A DNA stretch of 40,326 bases from the IMG/VR virus record IMGVR_UViG_2531839665_000018; one strand, given 5' to 3'. Below are positions 1 to 39,063 of this stretch, one piece after another. A program made the position numbers and the translations under genes. This stretch comes from a virus (lineage: Duplodnaviria > Heunggongvirae > Uroviricota > Caudoviricetes). Below the pieces are notes generated by a model. That model made no database searches, was not told the DNA's origin, and saw nothing but the letters and a program-made list of their open reading frames with translations. Position 1 is the first letter of the stretch. The number at the start of each line of letters is the position of its first letter.

Positions 1-993
1 CTAATCGATGGACAGTTTATGGACACTTTCAGCCAGCGGATTAAAGTTGATCGCGTCCTGTAAAAAGTCCGGCGAAAAATGAGCGTACGTCATTGTTTGC
101 TGAATCGTTGCGTGCCCCAGGATTCGTTGCAACGTAACAATATTTCCGCCATTCATCATAAAGTGTGTGGCAAATGTATGACGCATGACATGCGTAGCCT
201 GCCCCTTCGGCAAATCCGGTTTCACCTCCTGAAGAATCTCCCGGAACTTCAGATAATCAACCTGATACAATAACCCCGTTCGACGGGTTTTAATCAGAGG
301 CACGACCGAATCCGCCACAGGAACCGAACGGGATTTTCCGTTTTTGGTGTTAAAGAACGTCACCCGGTTGCCAACGATATGCTCTCCACGTAGTTCCGAT
401 GCTTCACTCCATCGGGCACCAGTAGAAAGACACAGAATGGCAACACGACGCGCATCACCCTCCAGTCGCTCAAGAAGCCGTTCAATCTCATCATCAGAAA
501 GAAAGGCCATCTCTGTGTTCTGAACTTTCAGTTTTCGTATACCGCGTACAGGGTTCGCGTTGTGAAAGACCTCAGCTTCAATCAGCACCGTGAACATGGT
601 AGACAGTACGCATAAGTCACGATTAATACTGGACGGCATTAATCCGGCCTGTAATTTCTCTGACCGATATTCAAGCATAAATTTTCGCGTCATCTGACTG
701 GCGCGAGGATCTCCCATTTCACGAACAACCTTCCCTAGCCTAACCCTGTAGCTATCCCCGTAAGCCTGATTACGCCCATCAAGCATCCACCACGCATCAA
801 GCAGCTCTGATAATCGCCGCTGATCAGCTGGCTTAGCCTGCCATGGCTTGTCATGAAAGTTCTGTAACACATACTTCTCAAACTCCTGAGCCTTTGATTT
901 CAGGGCAAAGATTTTTCGAACCCGCTTTCCTTCCGCCCCCTGCGGTCTGACATCGACCTGATAACGTCCGTCTTTGAGTTGCTTAATCGACAT
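1..993 (-). CDS. int: Phage integrase, tyrosine recombinase (P2 Int-like)
   Basis: 331-aa product starting MSIKQLKDGRYQVDVRPQG, the typical N-terminus of P2-family integrases; C-terminal region has the R..H..R..Y catalytic-type residues (HVMRHTFATHF, TYAHF). The track ORF extends 5 codons further upstream to a TTG at 1008. Confidence 0.9.
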   Translation of the reverse strand: MSIKQLKDGRYQVDVRPQGAEGKRVRKIFALKSKAQEFEKYVLQNFHDKPWQAKPADQRRLSELLDAWWMLDGRNQAYGDSYRVRLGKVVREMGDPRASQMTRKFMLEYRSEKLQAGLMPSSINRDLCVLSTMFTVLIEAEVFHNANPVRGIRKLKVQNTEMAFLSDDEIERLLERLEGDARRVAILCLSTGARWSEASELRGEHIVGNRVTFFNTKNGKSRSVPVADSVVPLIKTRRTGLLYQVDYLKFREILQEVKPDLPKGQATHVMRHTFATHFMMNGGNIVTLQRILGHATIQQTMTYAHFSPDFLQDAINFNPLAESVHKLSID

Positions 994-1062
994 GATTAGC
1001 CCCTCCAACGGATAAATTAACTAAACACTCCTTGCGATATGTAATTCGCTCAATGTGTAGAG

Positions 1063-1404
1063 TCAGCCAACATTGCGGCCTGATCGGGGTGATTTTTGGG
1101 TAATACCGATTGAAACCTGATCGCCCTCCGACTGAATAGATCCATCAAGAGAGAGAGCCGGAGCAATCTGCCCGGCGACAGGTAGCGTCTTATCTTTTAT
1201 TAGCCACAGCATGTATTTTTCAAAGCGATCGACTTGCAGAACCGCCTCAACGATTTTTGCTCTAGCGTTCTTTTGCCCCGATTCGTAATTCCTTATGGTT
1301 GCCAAAGACAACCCAGTAATATCCGCAAACTGCTTTTGTGTTAACCCTTCCGCCTTACGTATCTGACGTAACTTTTTTGCATAGTCTATTGACAAGATAA
1401 CCAT
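1063..1404 (-). CDS. Immunity repressor (P2 C / 186 CI-type, HTH_XRE)
   Basis: HTH segment LTQKQFADITGLSLATIRNYESGQ; same strand as int and directly upstream of it; divergent from the early operon. Start chosen at the third Met (MVILSIDYAKK); starts at 1437 or 1458 are possible. Confidence 0.7.
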   Translation of the reverse strand: MVILSIDYAKKLRQIRKAEGLTQKQFADITGLSLATIRNYESGQKNARAKIVEAVLQVDRFEKYMLWLIKDKTLPVAGQIAPALSLDGSIQSEGDQVSIGITQKSPRSGRNVG

Positions 1405-1450
1405 TTGAGTATTAACCTCTCGCACAAAGATAACCATTTGGTTATCTTTA
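1389..1450 (+). promoter_or_regulatory. Lysis/lysogeny switch region: candidate early promoter (-35 TTGACA 1389-1394, -10 TATTAA 1410-1415) flanked by direct repeats GATAACCATTTG (1396-1407, 1429-1440); second repeat sits in a 9-6-9 inverted repeat AAAGATAAC-N6-GTTATCTTT (1427-1450)
   Basis: Motifs read directly from sequence between the repressor start and the first early gene. Arrangement (two direct repeats bracketing the -10) matches the P2 operator paradigm. Confidence 0.45.
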
Positions 1451-1508
1451 CAAGCCAAAACAAACCATCACAAGGCGCGACAAGCGCACCAACGCAAGAG
1501 GATAACAA

Positions 1509-2030
1509 ATGCGGGACTTCATTGCCGATAAAGAGTTATCTGACCACCAACCACTTCAGGAAAGTGACGCACTCAGCGGATCCATTGATGCCGCCAACGA
1601 CGACGAACACGAAGAAAACAAGAAAAAGCGTTCCTACAAAAAAGGAGCGACTTTACGGCTGGATGGTCCGATCGCCGGGCTTTGCTCTCTGGAAAAAGGC
1701 GCGGCATATATTGGGCTAACAAAATCTGCACTGCGCGTAGCCATTCATCGCGGTCAAATGCCGGGACACAAGACGCGCACAAACCCGGAAGATGAAAACT
1801 CAGACGGAGTATGGTGGTTTAACGCCAAAGAGTGGGACAAGTTGGCTGATGAGCTACCAGAGCACGAGCCCCCAGAATGGCACAACTGGAAAAGTTACTG
1901 GACGTATGACCGCCAGAAAAGGAAGTTCTCTCCAGCTAATAAAGAAGACTGCCAGACCATTAACGGTAAGCGAGTTTATACAGGCAGAAGCTCAAAACTG
2001 AACCAACTCAGAAACAACAGAGGCAACTAA
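1509..2030 (+). CDS. Cox/Apl-like early DNA-binding protein with N- and C-terminal extensions
   Basis: First gene of the early operon; RBS AAGAGGA before ATG; central segment AAYIGLTKSALRVAIHRGQMP...GVWWFNAKEW resembles the Cox HTH core, but the 173-aa length is about twice that of Cox/Apl. Confidence 0.45.
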   Translation: MRDFIADKELSDHQPLQESDALSGSIDAANDDEHEENKKKRSYKKGATLRLDGPIAGLCSLEKGAAYIGLTKSALRVAIHRGQMPGHKTRTNPEDENSDGVWWFNAKEWDKLADELPEHEPPEWHNWKSYWTYDRQKRKFSPANKEDCQTINGKRVYTGRSSKLNQLRNNRGN

Positions 2031-2034
2031 TCGT

Positions 2035-2457
2035 ATGAAAACAAACACGTCAGATTTCACAATAACTATTTCAAAAAATGACCAAGCATTAATTGATAAC
2101 CTGAAATACCTTGCGGAAAAACATAATAACGGACGAATTGCAATTAATTTACGACACATCACAGGAGTAACAATTGTAACCAGTTACTGGCATCTATATC
2201 TAATCGCTAAATCAGTACTGGAAAACAAAGATTCTGTTGTCAATGGAAGAGATGTAGATACTCTTCCTGCACAAATCAAACCGATAGCCTATCAATTGCG
2301 TAATCGTTTTAAAAATGAAGGTGGGATTATATTTGACTTTCCCGCAGCTGTAGCCGTGAGCTTCTCTCGGGAGGATATACTTCACTCATTTCGTTTTGCT
2401 CTATCAGGTGACGAGACATTATGGCAGCTAGAAGATGCCGGGAGCAGCCCGGCATAA
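2035..2457 (+). CDS. Hypothetical protein (AT-rich accessory gene)
   Basis: 140-aa ORF in a locally AT-rich segment; no recognisable motif. Confidence 0.5.
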   Translation: MKTNTSDFTITISKNDQALIDNLKYLAEKHNNGRIAINLRHITGVTIVTSYWHLYLIAKSVLENKDSVVNGRDVDTLPAQIKPIAYQLRNRFKNEGGIIFDFPAAVAVSFSREDILHSFRFALSGDETLWQLEDAGSSPA

Positions 2458-2463
2458 ATCAAA

Positions 2464-2655
2464 TTAAAAATCAACCAGTTGTGTGACAGGTGGGTATTTA
2501 CGCTGAATTTTGTCAGTTACTAACGCCAGTAATATATGAATCTCTGCGTTTAATGCGTCTTTATCACCCGTCGTTTTTACCCTAGGAGGGTTAATGTTAT
2601 CCAGAGCAGCACTAAGGTCACTCAACAAATTAACAACTTTTTTATCTTCTGACAT
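2464..2655 (-). CDS. Hypothetical small protein, convergent with the upstream gene
   Basis: 63-aa ORF on the opposite strand with a good RBS (GAGG, 5 nt spacer, ATG); stop codons of the two genes are 6 bp apart. Confidence 0.4.
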   Translation of the reverse strand: MSEDKKVVNLLSDLSAALDNINPPRVKTTGDKDALNAEIHILLALVTDKIQRKYPPVTQLVDF

Positions 2656-2790
2656 GAAAACCTCTAAACAATTTAATTAAACATAAGCCAGGACCTGAAC
2701 CGGCCAGTCCAAGTCCTAGACACACAAAAAATACCACAAATCAATACAAGGTGACACGAGTACACCTTACCGAAGGTACAGAGTTTTAAT

Positions 2791-3141
2791 ATGAAACTAC
2801 AGCGCAATTCTTCACAGCCGCGCTTCCGCAACGGTGCGGAACGCCACGCTAACCGTTTCGCTACCAGTGCATCACGTAGCAACTCTCGCTACAGCCTGAG
2901 CGAAACACACGCAACGCCGGATGGCTACCCAGTAAAACAAATCGGCGAGCATACCTGGCTGATTGAGAAAGCTGGAATTGTGGTCCACAAATGCCCACGC
3001 AATCCGTTTACCGGAAACCGCATTTTTGCATTGAGCTGTGGCGACAATCAGTTTGGGCAGGATTTCACATTATACGAAGCACTTCGCACGGTTGATCGTC
3101 TGCTTCGCGGGCAAAGTTTTATTAAACAGGCTGATTTATAA
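2791..3141 (+). CDS. Hypothetical early protein
   Basis: 116-aa ORF in the early operon; no recognisable motif. Confidence 0.5.
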   Translation: MKLQRNSSQPRFRNGAERHANRFATSASRSNSRYSLSETHATPDGYPVKQIGEHTWLIEKAGIVVHKCPRNPFTGNRIFALSCGDNQFGQDFTLYEALRTVDRLLRGQSFIKQADL

Positions 3142-3151
3142 CGGGTGCTTT

Positions 3152-3439
3152 ATGACCAAAGACCATGCACAAGGTGTATTTATCCGTTTTATTGATTTTC
3201 GCGGTGAACTGTTATTACGTGCATCCGCTATTGACGGAGTGACTCCGGCGGGTAAAAACGGAGCCGACGAAGCCACTTACGTTTATCTGAACGGCACGCG
3301 ACTGCTTGTGGAACTTCCGTACCAGACCGTACGAGAAATCATTAGCGAAGCTGAAAAGGCACGCCAAGTTAATGGCGATGAACCCTATATCGAAATTATT
3401 TGTATGGATTCAGAAGCTGAAATTCAGAAAGCAGATTAA
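3152..3439 (+). CDS. Hypothetical early protein
   Basis: Internal ATG at 3152 of the track ORF 3038..3439 chosen because it follows the stop of the upstream gene; 95 aa. Confidence 0.45.
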   Translation: MTKDHAQGVFIRFIDFRGELLLRASAIDGVTPAGKNGADEATYVYLNGTRLLVELPYQTVREIISEAEKARQVNGDEPYIEIICMDSEAEIQKAD

Positions 3440-3450
3440 AGGGCGTTGCG

Positions 3451-3693
3451 ATGGGCAAAGAATATAAAACTCTCATTAATAAAGCACTTGAGCGTTTTTA
3501 TTTTCGCTTAAGTGCATCAGGCGCTCATGCTGAACGTGCAGCCCGTGACTCATTGACCAGGGCAATCCGGAGTCTGTATGACGTGGCTTTTTACGCTGAT
3601 GATCTGGATGCACTTAACGAACTTTCCGAGCTGATCTGTGCCGCAGAATGCGGGGAACATATTGAACCGTATAAGCTGGGGAATATTGCATGA
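3451..3693 (+). CDS. Hypothetical early protein
   Basis: 80-aa ORF, same strand, tightly packed in the early operon. Confidence 0.5.
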   Translation: MGKEYKTLINKALERFYFRLSASGAHAERAARDSLTRAIRSLYDVAFYADDLDALNELSELICAAECGEHIEPYKLGNIA

Positions 3694-3803
3694 GTATATT
3701 TATCTCATGGCTTGTTCTGATTATTTCGGTGGCCTGCGCCATTGGGATTATGCGAATTATTCATTCAGTAAAAAAGATTGAACGCTTTTTCACTGGTGAA
3801 TAA
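3690..3803 (+). CDS. Putative small membrane protein (37 aa), not in the ORF track
   Basis: ATG overlaps the upstream stop (ATGA); product MSIFISWLVLIISVACAIGIMRIIHSVKKIERFFTGE has one hydrophobic helix. Below the 60-aa track cut-off. Confidence 0.3.
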   Translation: MSIFISWLVLIISVACAIGIMRIIHSVKKIERFFTGE

Positions 3804-3896
3804 CGATACAAATAAAACATCAAATTAAATAAGAAAACGTGAAAACCATCCGTATTAACGGGGGTATTCGCACACGCAAATAACGGAGATACAAAA

Positions 3897-4307
3897 ATGC
3901 ACGCAAAAGAAGAAGGTATCATCAGAGCACTGAAAGAAATTTCAAAGACAGAAAACGAAGTAGCGAAAAAAGCCGTGGCAAATGCACATATGGACGTCGC
4001 AACCCACACACTGATAGTCGCAAGAGTCACGGCAGAAGCAGCCGAAATTATCGCAAAACAGGATGCTGAACTGGCGGTTCTCAGAACACAACCAGTCACC
4101 GGACTGGATTTGTCTAACACCGGACGCCTTATTTACACAATTGGCTCGGAGCTACAGCGATACACCATTATCGCCGGATTACAGGATAAATACCTGATCA
4201 CTCCTCACCCCATAAGGGAATCAGAGATTCTGACAAATCTCCGCCTGATAGAGCGCTCTCAAGTTGCATTCATTGATGACGCCCAACACACCGTATTTAA
4301 CGCATAG
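3897..4307 (+). CDS. Hypothetical early protein
   Basis: 136-aa ORF. Confidence 0.5.
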   Translation: MHAKEEGIIRALKEISKTENEVAKKAVANAHMDVATHTLIVARVTAEAAEIIAKQDAELAVLRTQPVTGLDLSNTGRLIYTIGSELQRYTIIAGLQDKYLITPHPIRESEILTNLRLIERSQVAFIDDAQHTVFNA

Positions 4308-4330
4308 GGTTACTGGACAAAGGGGGCGCA

Positions 4331-4534
4331 ATGGCAATTAAGCGTTTTTCCGTCATTCGTTTCACCTCCAGAGGGCGTGAATACGAAGTTGACGAACGGC
4401 TGATTAAAACGATCGACCGTCACCGTTCGCAACCTGACGCGCATCACATTTATCTCACTGACGACACTTACTTCTGCGCCACCAACGTGGTGCAGGTGAA
4501 TCTTATCAGACTGGTACAGGAGTCACGCAGATGA
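4331..4534 (+). CDS. Hypothetical early protein
   Basis: 67-aa ORF; stop overlaps the start of the next ORF. Confidence 0.4.
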   Translation: MAIKRFSVIRFTSRGREYEVDERLIKTIDRHRSQPDAHHIYLTDDTYFCATNVVQVNLIRLVQESRR

Positions 4535-5083: not shown

Positions 5084-5287
5084 ATGAACAAAAAGACCTG
5101 GTTTCGCGCATACATGTGGGCGCTGGTATGCGTCCTCGTTTCTCTCATTCTGTATGCAGGACTACTCCCCCGAATGATTTCATCAGACAGCTCCTTCCTG
5201 GTATTGCTGGGCATTTTCATTGCCATGCTGTACCCGGCAGGCGTTGTTCGCCTTTTCAGTAAGTACATCAAGGAAATCAAACAATGA
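5084..5287 (+). CDS. Small membrane protein (two predicted TM helices)
   Basis: 67 aa, two hydrophobic stretches; stop overlaps the start of the SPFH gene (ATGA). Confidence 0.5.
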   Translation: MNKKTWFRAYMWALVCVLVSLILYAGLLPRMISSDSSFLVLLGIFIAMLYPAGVVRLFSKYIKEIKQ

Positions 5288-6114
5288 AGAAACTCAAACT
5301 CTTTCAGATTATCCCGCTTTTTGCCGCCATCCTGCTGGTTGGTTGCGATCGCGTTGAGCCAGGTAATGTGGGCATCAAAGTCAACAAACTGGGCGACGAC
5401 AAAGGCGTCGGCGAAGTGGTTGGCGTTGGCCGCTACTGGACTGGCTGGAATACCGAGGTTTACATCTTCCCGACCTTCAAACAAATGAAGACCTACGATG
5501 AGCCGTTCAGCTTCCAGATGAGTGACGGCACAACCATCGGCTATCACATCGGTGTGGCCTACAAGGTTGAACCATCAAAAGTTACTACAGTGTTTCAGAC
5601 CTACCGCAAAGGCGTGGATGACATTACCGACACTGACCTGCGCCAGAAGATCGCCGATGCACTCAACCGACTGGCCAGCAAAATGACCACCGACAAATTT
5701 ATCGACGGCGGGAAATCTGAACTACTGGATGCAGCTCTTAAAGACATTCAGGAGGAAATGACACCCATCGGCATTCAGGTAATGAGCCTCTCTTATGTCG
5801 GTAAACCGGAATATCCGCCAACCGTTATCGACAGCATTAACGCCAAAGTCACGGCAAACCAGAAAACCCTGCAACGCGAACAGGAAGTCAAGCAACGCGA
5901 AGCAGAAGCCAACATGTTGCGCGCAGAAGCTGCCGGACAGGCTGATGCCATTCGCACAAAAGCCCAGGCTGAAGCCGACGCCATTCGTTTACGCGGCGAA
6001 GCTCTGCGCCAGAATCCCGGCGTTATGGAGCTGGAAGCAATCAACAAATGGAACGGCACGCTGCCGCAATACATGACCAGCAACACCGCTGTTCCGTTTG
6101 TTCCGGTGAAGTAA
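5284..6114 (+). CDS. SPFH/band-7 (stomatin/HflK-like) domain lipoprotein
   Basis: Lipoprotein signal peptide with lipobox LLVGC; C-terminal Ala/Glu/Gln/Arg-rich coiled-coil-like tail (QREQEVKQREAEANMLRAEAAGQADAIRTKAQAEADAIRLRGE) typical of SPFH proteins. Family call made by eye, no HMM. Confidence 0.7.
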   Translation: MKKLKLFQIIPLFAAILLVGCDRVEPGNVGIKVNKLGDDKGVGEVVGVGRYWTGWNTEVYIFPTFKQMKTYDEPFSFQMSDGTTIGYHIGVAYKVEPSKVTTVFQTYRKGVDDITDTDLRQKIADALNRLASKMTTDKFIDGGKSELLDAALKDIQEEMTPIGIQVMSLSYVGKPEYPPTVIDSINAKVTANQKTLQREQEVKQREAEANMLRAEAAGQADAIRTKAQAEADAIRLRGEALRQNPGVMELEAINKWNGTLPQYMTSNTAVPFVPVK

Positions 6115-26328: not shown

Positions 26329-26856
26329 TTATTCAGGCTTTTGTGGCCATTCAGGATTTGCCGTATCCACACGGCTGACCAGAACACTGTAGCGTTCCCA
26401 TGCTTCCAGTCGTGTGCGTTCCTCATCCGTTGCCATATTCAGCCTGACAGCGCGTTCCAGTGGCTGAATAACGCTTTCTGCTTCGGAAAGTAACGCGGCC
26501 TTTTGTGATTCGGCCTGTTGTTGCTGTTCATCTGCCGTATAAATCCGTTTAACCACAGCTCCGTCCTTAAACATCCACTTACCGGAATCATCGGCCCGAC
26601 GATTGGCTGTTATATCGGGGACTTCAACAACGCTAAAGCCTTCAGGATTAAGTGTGGAGGCATCTTTAGTGATGGCTACAATAATATTATTTTCATCGTA
26701 AACAATCTTTATTGTGTCTGGCTGAAAATTCTTTACCTCTTCATACCAGTTCTTCCCGTCTTCAGAGTAAAGCCAGATAACTCCGTGCTTCTTTGTTAAC
26801 TCATACTGTTCCGGTGTTTTAGCATTACCAATTTTTATGTTCTTTAAGTGGATCAT
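26329..26856 (-). CDS. Alternative tail fiber assembly protein (G'), inside the invertible segment
   Basis: 175 aa, conserved N-terminus and divergent C-terminus relative to G; opposite strand. Confidence 0.8.
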
Positions 26857-26857
26857 A

Positions 26858-28096
26858 TTAAACGCTCGCTACATTATACCATGTGCCATTTATATACTTT
26901 TGAACGGGTCTGTAATAAACACCAGCTATATTATCGGCAGAATTGGACCCTGTATCCTGAACATTTATACCAGACAATACATGACCTGAAGGGCACTGGA
27001 AGTTCCATGTTTGCCAGTTGTTCACACCATAATATTGCTGTGAGCCAAGCCGAACATCTTTCACATATCGGGAATCAATGTTATCCCAGTTGCTTGGTTG
27101 TATCTGACCGTTTACAGCAAATATCACCGAGTTATCTGTATTTCGCTGACTATAGAAATGCCAGCCTGAATCATCACCAAGCTCTGCAACAGTTGGTCTT
27201 GACGAATTTCCCCACAAGTTAAATGATGCATTACGGGCAGCGGTATTTGCACTTGAAAGTGTGAAGAACTTACTTTCCCCAGCCTGAATACCCTTTAATG
27301 ATCTTGCTGAACCATTTATAAAGCGGAATACATGCACACCATTAGCATAAGCATCCAGCACCCCATCACCATTTTGTTTAAACCCGGTATCGTTATCTCC
27401 TAAAACTATTGAATTTCCACCCAGGGCATTAGCCGTTCCAATCCCCAGATTTCCGCTAAAAATGGCATTAATACCGAATATTGAGTGAGAACAATAAAAC
27501 CCTCGCCCATTGTTAAAATCCAGAATGGCTTGTGCGTTCGTGCTTTCTGTCGCGGGATTAGTTGCTCCCCACTTATATGTTGTTTGACCGACGGTATAAT
27601 CCTGAGTTGGAACAATAACCGTTAGCCCTTCTTCAGCAGAAACCCGCACAGGAAAAGCCCTGCCTTCAACGTAAAAAACGCTGCATACATCATCTTCTTT
27701 AAGGCTTGTTACAATGGAATGGATTGCGCGCTCATTAGTCTGATATGTCGAAAAATAACCTGCCGCATATGAACCACGATCAGTCCAGCCACCAGGCATT
27801 ACCATTCCATTGAATTCGCAGTTATTCATTTCGTAATTACCATCGGCAGATGTGGTCGTTATAATCACTCTGGAAGCCAGCTCGCCAGTGCTGCCTGTGG
27901 AACGCCGGAAAATAACTGGATACCACTTTCCACCAACTGCATTAGACGGCGCATTAAATGCGTACTGCTGCATTCCTTTTTTCTTATCCACCTCGCCTTT
28001 GCTGTAAACATTAATGTTACTCAGGAAGCGATCCTTATCAGGAATATCTGCGCCGTTCTGGTTTTTCTGTAATGCGCCAGAAGCCTGATTTACCGT
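26858..28096 (-). CDS. Alternative tail-fiber C-terminal segment (promoterless; would fuse to the H N-terminus after inversion)
   Basis: Reading frame is open from the right crossover site through the track ORF 26858..27991; ends [11 protein letters not shown] like H. Confidence 0.7.
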
Positions 28097-35765: not shown

Positions 35766-36788
35766 TTAATACGCATTTAATTTAAATTTGTATTTGCCTT
35801 CTATGTAATGGATAAATTCAATTATGCTTTTTTCTATCGCATCTAATATATGAATATATCCATCCCGATTTAAGGTCCTATCCAATTCAAAGTGATGAAC
35901 TATCCCATGTCTATATTGTATGATTTCAGAAATTCGATTCTCAAGAAAATCAACTGATTTTCCAATTCTTTTTTTCTTATAAAGAATCGCTCTCACATCT
36001 ATATCCAGCCACTCTTTATATGCTTTGTTTAGGTGGGTTAAGTTTTGAAAAGTGTAATTTCTTGCAATAACACTTTCTATTGAAATATTTCCTTTCTCTA
36101 TCTCAAGCAGAATATCAAAATCAACTTTTTGCTTATACGATGTTCTTTTTGCTATTGCGAAAGGATCGTACTTTATAAGTATTTGAAAAGCTCTAGAGAA
36201 AAAGTATTCAAACATAGCAACCGCAAAAGGTACTAATCCATTATATATAACTCTACTGGGATCCATACATTGCATGTAATCAAAGTATTCGGATAAGCCG
36301 CCATCTTCCGGTAGGTTTAATTTAATAGAAGGTTCAGGTAAGGCATGTTTAACAGCGGAAATCTCATGATGGACATGATTAAATATTGAAGAAATGCCAC
36401 GACTGATCGGACTACTAGAATCCTTCCATAGAGGAGCGTACCTATTTTTCCCATAATCACCTATAAGTGTTCCACCAAAAAGACTCCTTGCGCCTTTTAG
36501 AACATCATTAAGCATTTTTACATCATGCCAACTAGCGCTATATAAATTACGCACATGCAATGCCCATTTATTACCAGATATGTGTAATTCGTCATTTGAA
36601 ACAGGATATATATCAGCCGAAACTCCATCTGTAGATTTGAAGTCCGTATCATCAAACCAAGAGTAATTCAACGTTCCTTGGGGCCATTCCCACAAATGTT
36701 TACACCTTTTAAAACCTAAATTTTCAAGGTAATTTTTAAGTTCGTTTCTAGTTGCTTTTTTAGGGTACAGCGTTATATCTCTTCCCAT
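35766..36788 (-). CDS. Hypothetical 340-aa protein in an AT-rich insert; C-terminal Rx4H HEPN-like motif
   Basis: Strongly AT-rich compared with flanking D and ogr; opposite strand; motif RHGIVHH near the C-terminus; no other recognisable domain. Confidence 0.55.
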   Translation of the reverse strand: MGRDITLYPKKATRNELKNYLENLGFKRCKHLWEWPQGTLNYSWFDDTDFKSTDGVSADIYPVSNDELHISGNKWALHVRNLYSASWHDVKMLNDVLKGARSLFGGTLIGDYGKNRYAPLWKDSSSPISRGISSIFNHVHHEISAVKHALPEPSIKLNLPEDGGLSEYFDYMQCMDPSRVIYNGLVPFAVAMFEYFFSRAFQILIKYDPFAIAKRTSYKQKVDFDILLEIEKGNISIESVIARNYTFQNLTHLNKAYKEWLDIDVRAILYKKKRIGKSVDFLENRISEIIQYRHGIVHHFELDRTLNRDGYIHILDAIEKSIIEFIHYIEGKYKFKLNAY

Positions 36789-37832: not shown

Positions 37833-38165
37833 ATGGCATTAATCAAATGTCCTGAATGCCAGAAAGAGGTGAGCGATTCAGCATTGTATTGCCCTGCTTG
37901 CGGTAAACAAATAAAAAAACTTAAGCGTTCATTTTTTGGAAAGCTCATTAAGTGGATATTTATATTATTTAATATTTTTATGATCTATACGCTTTTAGTT
38001 GGACTGGGAGGCACTAGTGAAATAATAAATAATGCTACATCCGATGCCGAAAAAGCCGGTGCAGTTATTGGTACAGGCTTAGGTTTAATTACCATTGGAA
38101 GTTTATGGGTTATTGGCGATATCATTATCGGAATTTTAGTATTTCTTACTAAACCAAAAGGATAA
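37833..38165 (+). CDS. Zinc-ribbon membrane protein
   Basis: N-terminal CPEC...CPAC zinc ribbon followed by two hydrophobic helices; AT-rich. Confidence 0.5.
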   Translation: MALIKCPECQKEVSDSALYCPACGKQIKKLKRSFFGKLIKWIFILFNIFMIYTLLVGLGGTSEIINNATSDAEKAGAVIGTGLGLITIGSLWVIGDIIIGILVFLTKPKG

Positions 38166-38169
38166 CAAA

Positions 38170-39063
38170 ATGAAAAATATAATTTTTTCTATAGGTGCAT
38201 CATTTATATCAATTAGTGTACTGCCTGTTCACGCAGCAACTGAACATAATAACTTCAATGCAGTACTCCAGTGCCGAGCAATAGAAAATAATAAAGACAG
38301 ACTTTCTTGTTACGATAAGTCAATACAACCGACTCGAACGAAAGTTGCTGAAAAATTCGAAAGCAGAGATCAATGCCCTGATGAGAAAGATGATGACAGA
38401 CGTTTATCTTGTTATGATCGTTTTTTTTCTCCAACATTTACTCCATCTGTAAACTCAAAATCTAAAACGGAAAAGCCAGTAACAACAGAGGCTCAGCAAC
38501 CAAATCTTTCTGAGATATCTAAATGCCGAGCAGAAAATGATAAAGAAGCCAGACTAAACTGCTACGATAAACTATTCCCACAGGATAAAGCTGTTCAAGC
38601 TGAATCAAAATTAGAGAAAGCCAAAGATGTAGGAAAATGGCACACATCCATTACTACATCGCCAATTGATGATTCGAAAAATGTAATTTTATCGTTAGAA
38701 AGTGATGATTATATCAGAACTCCATTTGGAGAAGCGGTTACTCCCACTCTGTTTATAGCTTGCCGAGAAAAGAAAACCGAAGTATTTCTTAGTTGGGATG
38801 TATATTTAGGCCTTGAACAAACCAGCATGCTTTATCGTCTTGATAAACAGAAAGCAGTTGAGCGAAACTGGCTAGTATCTACAGATACAAAGGCTGTTTT
38901 TTATAAAGGTAATGACATTGATTTCATCCGAAAACTAGCCAACTCAAACAAAATGTATACAAAAATAACTCCTTATAATGAGAGCCCTGTAAGTGCAACT
39001 TTCAATTTAAACGGCCTGTCAAACGCGCTAAAACCACTTCAAGCTGCTTGTAACTGGAAATAG
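38170..39063 (+). CDS. Secreted repeat protein (three RLSCYD-type repeats)
   Basis: N-terminal signal peptide; repeats DRLSCYDKSI / RRLSCYDRFF / ARLNCYDKLF; AT-rich. Confidence 0.5.
   Translation: MKNIIFSIGASFISISVLPVHAATEHNNFNAVLQCRAIENNKDRLSCYDKSIQPTRTKVAEKFESRDQCPDEKDDDRRLSCYDRFFSPTFTPSVNSKSKTEKPVTTEAQQPNLSEISKCRAENDKEARLNCYDKLFPQDKAVQAESKLEKAKDVGKWHTSITTSPIDDSKNVILSLESDDYIRTPFGEAVTPTLFIACREKKTEVFLSWDVYLGLEQTSMLYRLDKQKAVERNWLVSTDTKAVFYKGNDIDFIRKLANSNKMYTKITPYNESPVSATFNLNGLSNALKPLQAACNWK

Follow-up and report, generated by a model that had tools for sequence, protein, structure and literature searches.

Prophage setting and gene content

The window, i.e. the whole stretch of DNA that was analysed (40,326 nucleotides), is a P88-like prophage (Xuanwuvirus, Peduoviridae). 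Near-identical DNA is contained in three deposited E. coli phage records, and the prophage is adjoined by dmsA in RefSeq genomes. The integrase and C repressor genes are located at the left end, followed by cox as gene 1 of the early lytic operon. Between cox and DUF4761 lie two convergent genes, here called orf140 and orf63. Downstream of DUF4761, the operon continues with DUF4754 and the remaining early genes. DNA similarity to other P88-like phages restarts at about 2774-2821. The following features were assigned in this region.

1-1008, minus strand: integrase gene, left end of the window
1063-1404/1458, minus strand: C repressor gene, left end of the window
1509-2030, plus strand: cox, 173 aa (Pfam Phage_Cox, E 1.9e-07; phrog_23196, E 2.4e-116)
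2020-2023, plus strand: GAGG in the 3' end of cox, read from the sequence, 11 nt before the orf140 ATG
2035-2457, plus strand: orf140, stop codon TAA at 2455-2457
2458-2463: spacer of 6 nt between the two stop codons, without a terminator, read from the sequence
2464-2655, minus strand: orf63, from the list of open reading frames
2661-2665, minus strand: Shine-Dalgarno sequence AGAGG of orf63, 5 nt before the ATG
2688-2719, minus strand: hairpin of 14 bp with 4 G-U pairs in the predicted orf63 5' leader
2728-2757, minus strand: predicted orf63 promoter (sequence prediction), extended -10 plus a weak -35-like element
2791-3141, plus strand: DUF4761 gene, first conserved Xuanwuvirus early gene past the pair

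Several other parts of the window were recorded during annotation. A 67-aa membrane protein and an SPFH/band-7 lipoprotein are encoded in the early operon at 5084-6114. The annotation of the lipoprotein reads "SPFH domain-containing protein" in UTI89 and "lipoprotein" in P88, and its gene is further non-replicative early cargo. A low-GC block on the opposite strand amid the tail genes (26329-27991, minus strand) contains a tail-fibre assembly protein gene (Caudo_TAP, E 1e-37) and a 377-aa ORF, and is possibly an alternative or invertible tail-fibre cassette. Past the gpD tail gene, a low-GC region comprises 35766-36788 (minus strand) and 37833-39063 (plus strand). The leftward 340-aa ORF at 35766-36788 gave a sub-threshold match to RiboL-PSP HEPN (E 1.2e-4) and is possibly defence cargo located at the end of the prophage; genes for a zinc-ribbon and a VasI-like protein lie past it.

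The convergent gene pair

A first-pass annotation, made from the sequence alone, had described a 140-aa plus-strand ORF and a 63-aa minus-strand ORF with stop codons 6 nt apart, the latter with its own strong ribosome-binding site, in an AT-rich segment. The coordinates were exactly as claimed, and AGAGG was present 5 nt ahead of the orf63 ATG. Both genes were called by PGAP in RefSeq genomes. A GC profile gave 38.4% for 2035-2790 vs 51.4% for the whole window (z = -2.05), in agreement with the description. Approximately 5% of equal-sized windows have a GC content as low as this, so the dip is real and not unique in the window.

The stop codon of cox (2028-2030) precedes the orf140 ATG by 4 nt. 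Together with GAGG 11 nt upstream of the ATG, this suggests that translation of orf140 is coupled to that of cox. The orf140 product is soluble and mildly acidic (pI 6.4), and its gene is co-oriented with the early operon. An AF2 model based on 16 sequences was of low confidence (pLDDT 56) and alpha/beta, and gave no fold match. On this model, orf140 would encode an alpha/beta protein; its family is undescribed. The orf63 product is small and acidic (pI 5.6), and was modelled as a helix-loop-helix hairpin with helices at residues 3-21 and 31-53 (pLDDT 69.5). The helical hairpin is generic, and Foldseek against the PDB gave no match. The family motif of orf63 is M[NS][ED]D[EK]K..LL.D...AL ... 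KYP.

Predicted promoter and leader of orf63

Upstream of orf63, an extended -10 element was predicted (TG at 2736-2735, TATTTT at 2733-2728), preceded by a weak -35-like element (GTGTCA, 2757-2752). A transcription start near 2721 is predicted. The promoter was not called by a simple sigma-70 scan (weak -35), and neither a LexA box nor a P2 late-promoter dyad was found by eye upstream of orf63. The A-tract directly downstream of the predicted -10 (2726-2731) has 6, 7 or 8 A among E. coli alleles; such length variation would shift the -10 relative to the start or hairpin.

The folding energy of the hairpin at 2688-2719 was -20.8 kcal/mol for the leftward RNA vs -7.8 kcal/mol for the rightward RNA. 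Because of the G-U pairs, the leftward RNA alone can form the hairpin stably, and the hairpin therefore belongs to the orf63 transcript. A hairpin was present at the equivalent place in all homologous leaders. No match to Rfam was obtained for window positions 1000-4000 or for the leaders of the Salmonella loci L005, L008 and L012. No terminator-like site was predicted downstream of orf63 or between the two genes, and no intrinsic terminator was predicted on the minus strand from orf63 to the C gene.

Leaders aligned upstream of the small genes consist of an extended -10-like block, a strong hairpin, approximately 25 nt, a ribosome-binding site and the ATG. The core TGTGNTANNTT was derived from Salmonella sequences only, does not vary among the Salmonella leaders and resembles an extended -10 promoter. 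It is followed by a hairpin and lies 67-76 nt ahead of each leftward gene of these regions. Over both strands of the 40-kb window it occurs once (2728-2738, minus strand), with 1.24 occurrences expected by chance. The distance from this occurrence to the orf63 ATG is 73 nt, within the range found elsewhere; by rough arithmetic, the chance of a random match falling in that 10-nt range is about 1.5e-4. A wider pattern, YTGTGNTAYNTT, was composed after the window had been seen and is therefore not an independent test.

The same promoter and leader are located ahead of unrelated leftward genes (103, 108 and 168 aa) in Salmonella prophages. The conserved stretch of approximately 110 nt was found at the following positions.

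L005, 6805-6890, minus strand: conserved leader stretch ahead of an unrelated leftward gene
L014, 4938-5020, minus strand: conserved leader stretch ahead of an unrelated leftward gene
L012, 6007-6084, minus strand: conserved leader stretch ahead of an unrelated leftward gene
L008, 6238-6315, minus strand: conserved leader stretch ahead of an unrelated leftward gene

It comprises an extended -10-like TTGTGCTATGTT, a hairpin with a 12-bp stem and a ribosome-binding site, and had no match in Rfam. Since it precedes unrelated genes, it behaves as a shared element for counter-oriented cargo, and promoter plus leader look like a portable expression cassette. The 108-aa leftward cargo gene of L012 (5680-6006, minus strand) gave a weak match to the IraP anti-adaptor (E 0.008, below the Pfam cut-off), a hint that some leftward cargo genes could target host regulators.

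Occurrence in E. coli and in Xuanwuvirus

The 760-bp segment was detected in 270 of 5426 complete E. coli genomes as a single chromosomal copy. Carriers include UTI89, JJ1887 and many ST131 strains. In P88, cox and DUF4761 are separated by 37 nt. One 68-aa co-oriented ORF is located between them in Chuche and Shae_phiSM, three small co-oriented ORFs in P88_4B11 and PhiR44_2, and no ORF in phage 520873. As orf140 is missing from all six of these other Xuanwuvirus records, it is no core early gene.

In one E. coli genome, L003 (NZ_CM136152.1), part of the segment is missing.

2028-2714, 687 bp: missing in L003, where 1-2027 directly adjoins 2715-4497

Microhomology of 1 bp but no target-site duplication is present at the breakpoint, and L003 is otherwise collinear over the compared region from int to the early genes (4.5 kb). 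Its cox (L003 1983-2540) gains 12 codons, resulting in a Cox of 185 aa. The promoter motif is retained at L003 2514-2525 (minus strand); the result is an orphan leftward promoter pointing into cox. An ancestral empty site of a 687-bp insertion in cox was considered for L003 and rejected, because the orf63 promoter is retained outside the gap. The rarity of genomes without the pair (1-2 of 272) and the end of Cox also oppose it: in alignment, the 173-aa window Cox and the L039 Cox (63% identical) have their C-termini at the same place. For the same reasons a deletion of 687 bp explains L003 better than an empty insertion site does. The segment had been described as inserted. It is extra relative to P88 and the five other Xuanwuviruses, which agrees with that wording; L003 provides no empty site in its support.

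Homologous loci, linkage and selection

The first-pass annotation had proposed to look for the pair elsewhere. The same convergent pair was found in 11 distinct loci (the window, L005/6, L011, L012/13, L014, L015, L027, L039, L045, L046 and L047), mostly in Salmonella P2-like prophages. The small proteins of these loci are homologous to orf63; identity to the L005 partner is 43% (E 3e-17). Every context fetched was a P2-like prophage, with the gene right after the switch region (int-C-cox wherever the contig reaches that far). The module is always found after this region, irrespective of the type of C and Cox, while the genes flanking the pair differ from locus to locus. The convergent small gene encodes 60-62 aa, or 70 aa in L015. 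The stop codons overlap by 4 nt in most homologous loci or are 4-6 nt apart, and the overlap is 31 nt in L015. GC content of the Salmonella versions is 39-43% vs 41-49% in the flanks, with a gap of less than 1 point in L015 (2 kb of contig only).

Across loci, identity ranges from 21 to 60% for the large protein and from 27 to 97% for the small protein; conservation is always higher for the latter. The E. coli copies vary too little for dN/dS. In the least saturated comparison, L011 vs L012, dN/dS was 0.21 for the small and 0.33 for the large gene. Both genes are under purifying selection, and the minus-strand ORF, which might have been spurious, is thus a genuine conserved gene. L012 and L027 share 97% identity in the small and 51% in the large protein, with unrelated C and Cox; the pair type is therefore uncoupled from the immunity type, and the pair moves independently of it.

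The large gene is intact in L007, L048 and L049, with no small gene called alongside. At the junction in L007, the sole one examined, a 276-bp deletion took the small gene plus its promoter. The small gene alone was not seen in the searches run (small sample). The N-terminal domain of the large protein is joined to other sequence in L008 and in the second gene of L014. In L014 (3245-4937), units are in tandem: a convergent pair of 147 and 62 aa is followed by a 225-aa chimera with a convergent 103-aa gene. The chimera joins an orf140-like N-terminal domain to the C-terminus of the L005 259-aa protein, which indicates recombination inside these modules.

Two further observations were made in the homologous loci. 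Proteins of 131-134 aa are encoded just upstream of the pair in L015 (229-633) and L039 (4685-5080, minus strand). Their N-terminus resembles the P2 capsid scaffold/protease gpO (Phage_GPO, E 0.018, positions 4-36, weak), and they could be scaffold-like decoys if this match is real. The early region of L005 (8795-8996) contains isrK (Rfam E 6.9e-13) and a C4 antisense RNA (E 2.9e-15), a P1/P7-type antirepressor control element.

These data bear on an alternative in which orf63 is a single-gene leftward moron and orf140 an unrelated accessory early gene, the adjacency being kept by common descent and tight spacing and not by common function. This would fit the use of the same promoter and leader by the unrelated 103-, 108- and 168-aa genes, the persistence of the large gene alone in three loci, and the unlike divergence of the two genes between L012 and L027, which points to recombination between or within them. 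However, the pair stays together in 11 loci while both sides change, the overlap or abutment of the stop codons is conserved, and none of the searches run returned a small gene lacking the large one. Independent neighbouring cargo is considered somewhat unlikely.

Annotation searches

In a direct search of 5.8 billion proteins, orf140 matched only close relatives from E. coli (at least 98% identical), as did orf63 (at least 93% identical). Exhaustive phmmer and profile searches gave 19 clusters of orf140 relatives with 29-38% identity; all of those carrying source names were from Salmonella enterica or E. coli. A tblastn search of orf140 against 50,697 phage records returned three records only, all near-identical and derived from E. 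coli prophages. Neither the small protein nor the leader from Salmonella had a match in the phage collection, and scans of genome contigs did not find relatives.

The window proteins and their homologues had no significant match to Pfam, PHROG, NCBIfam or PADLOC. PADLOC models did not match the window proteins at E ≤ 1, and for the homologues and neighbouring genes gave chance-level matches only. A weak match of orf140 to DUF1408/phrog_5450 (E ~0.01, residues 67-101) was dismissed as chance, since it was obtained for just 2 of 16 family members. Nothing was found in the PDB by sequence or fold for either protein, and homology and structure prediction, which had been suggested as a check, thus matched neither protein to a known family or fold. 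Helix-turn-helix or other DNA-binding signatures were not found in either. At every locus the two proteins are soluble, with pI values from acidic to near neutral (4.6-6.8), which counts against DNA binding and membrane toxins, and neither is hydrophobic. Literature searches with the RefSeq protein accessions and on P2-like morons returned nothing specific, and no structural or sequence clue to activity was found for either protein.

Comparison with known systems

Morons, in the sense of Hendrix and Juhala, are independent transcription units inserted between conserved phage genes. The pair resembles them in being accessory and missing from close relatives at the same site, in its deviating base composition, and in a counter-oriented gene with its own predicted promoter, presumably expressed from the repressed prophage. 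It differs in having two genes, of which only one has its own predicted promoter while the other is embedded in the early operon. Unlike morons, it also has no terminator, the stop codons converging or overlapping, and its promoter and leader are a conserved cassette common to unrelated leftward genes. The proposal of an acquired moron was upheld to the extent that the segment is accessory, non-core and AT-rich and its counter-oriented gene genuine.

A toxin-antitoxin or exclusion module had also been suggested. Like type II toxin-antitoxin systems, the pair consists of two small genes that are tightly linked, diverge rapidly and are carried by a mobile element; one product is small, acidic and helical. 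In contrast to such systems, the genes are convergent in 11 of 11 loci and form separate transcription units, homology to a known toxin or antitoxin family was not found, the large gene is also found on its own, and of the two proteins the small one is the better conserved. In its classical type II form the toxin-antitoxin proposal is accordingly not supported: the layout is convergent, the family matches none, and the large gene stands alone in three loci, which argues against orf140 as the toxin.

In a broader form, the pair would act in toxin-antitoxin or abortive-infection fashion, with infection or prophage loss freeing the toxin. The size, linkage, divergence and helical partner mentioned above suit this, as does the report that the region holds defence systems of P2-like phages. 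A small toxin with a large antidote would also explain why the small gene is never alone and the large one sometimes is. Nevertheless, the genes converge and form no single operon, neither protein is hydrophobic, and no family member is matched by PADLOC, Pfam, PHROGs or NCBIfam. Either assignment of the toxin is awkward: orf140 would be unexpected in this role, as it survives without orf63 in three loci, and an orf63 toxin, predicted to be made in the lysogen, is hard to reconcile with an antidote in the repressed operon. Such a pair is regarded as unlikely.

Exclusion genes with self-immunity include sieB/esc of P22 and lambda; the lysogenic-conversion genes old, tin and fun(Z) of P2 were considered alongside them. 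The resemblance is one of logic: a gene expressed in the lysogen of a P2-family or lambdoid prophage is combined with a phage function by which the phage spares itself. Unlike these genes, the pair shows no sequence relationship to them in the searches, and it sits after cox and not at the old/tin or Z/fun sites. We know of no exclusion phenotype for the orf140/orf63 pair. Nothing identifies the pair as a toxin-antitoxin or exclusion system, and a classical toxin-antitoxin system is disfavoured; the genes may still act as an antagonist pair or in exclusion.

Phage 186 carries cII, fil and dhr after apl, and P2 carries orf78; these are non-essential early genes. The slot directly downstream of cox/apl in the early operon is the same. 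Unlike orf63, all these genes are co-oriented with the operon, and to our knowledge none of them has a convergent small partner.

Proposed function

The pair is an accessory two-gene module of an undescribed family in P2-like prophages of E. coli and Salmonella. The protein families and the architecture are undescribed; prophage accessory cargo as a kind is already known. Our preferred, still tentative reading is a moron-type module with reciprocal lysogenic and lytic expression, the two proteins being partners with a role in conflict.

In this reading, orf140 would be the second cistron of the early lytic operon, transcribed from Pe. Transcribed in this way and probably coupled to cox, it would be made only on infection or induction. 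The gene orf63 would form a separate leftward unit with its own extended -10 promoter and strong ribosome-binding site, and the 5' hairpin probably stabilises its mRNA. With promoter, leader hairpin and ribosome-binding site of its own, orf63 should be made in the repressed lysogen. As no terminator lies between the converging units, their transcripts must overlap, and expression should be reciprocal. Firing of Pe would suppress orf63 by transcriptional interference or antisense RNA.

A partnership of the proteins is suggested because the two genes move together and the small one was not seen on its own. Most likely, the small helical hairpin would be expressed in the lysogen and would bind or inhibit the early protein or the target of that protein. 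In P2-like phages, the interval between integrase and primase has been reported as a minor defence hotspot (bioRxiv 10.64898/2026.02.27.708500), which makes a conflict role likely; the module would serve phage-host or phage-phage conflict and not core replication.

The retention of the pair in 11 loci despite differing neighbours counts for the preferred reading. Against it counts that the promoter and leader also precede unrelated leftward genes, so that orf63 could be generic leftward cargo and not a dedicated partner. The small protein is also far better conserved than the large one, which is not as tight co-evolution of an interacting pair predicts.

The transcriptional layout would also suit a module with an accessory part in regulating the lysis-lysogeny switch. 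Transcription that starts leftward at the orf63 promoter and runs antisense through orf140 and cox towards C and int would stabilise lysogeny, and the proteins may tune Cox or C. They would occupy the position that cII has in phage 186. The module directly follows cox in every locus, no intrinsic terminator was predicted on the minus strand up to the C gene, and convergence with Pe resembles the transcriptional interference studied in 186 (PMC5001618). Immunity-specific regulators, however, would be expected to go with a given C/Cox type, which the pair type does not. Neither protein carries a DNA-binding signature, both are acidic, P88 and other Xuanwuviruses manage without the module, and deletion variants exist. 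A switch regulator is considered unlikely.

The preferred reading can be extended, with low probability, to a new kind of prophage conflict module. A lysogen protein and an early-lytic protein would form a reciprocal switch through convergent overlapping transcription, delivered by the portable promoter-hairpin cassette. An example would be exclusion of competitors with built-in self-immunity, and P2-like phages would reuse the cassette for diverse counter-oriented cargo of the early region.

Implications

Approximately 5% of the complete E. coli genomes carry the module, among them the pathogen lineages UTI89 and ST131, as do many Salmonella P2-like prophages; both of its protein families lack annotation. 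In P2-like phages, the early region has received much less searching than the known P2 defence hotspots. The shared, conserved promoter and leader motif provides a sequence handle for other cargo of this region that may be expressed in the lysogen. The conserved layout, a gene of the lytic operon facing a counter-oriented gene with probable expression in the lysogen, offers a simple and testable model of reciprocal expression.
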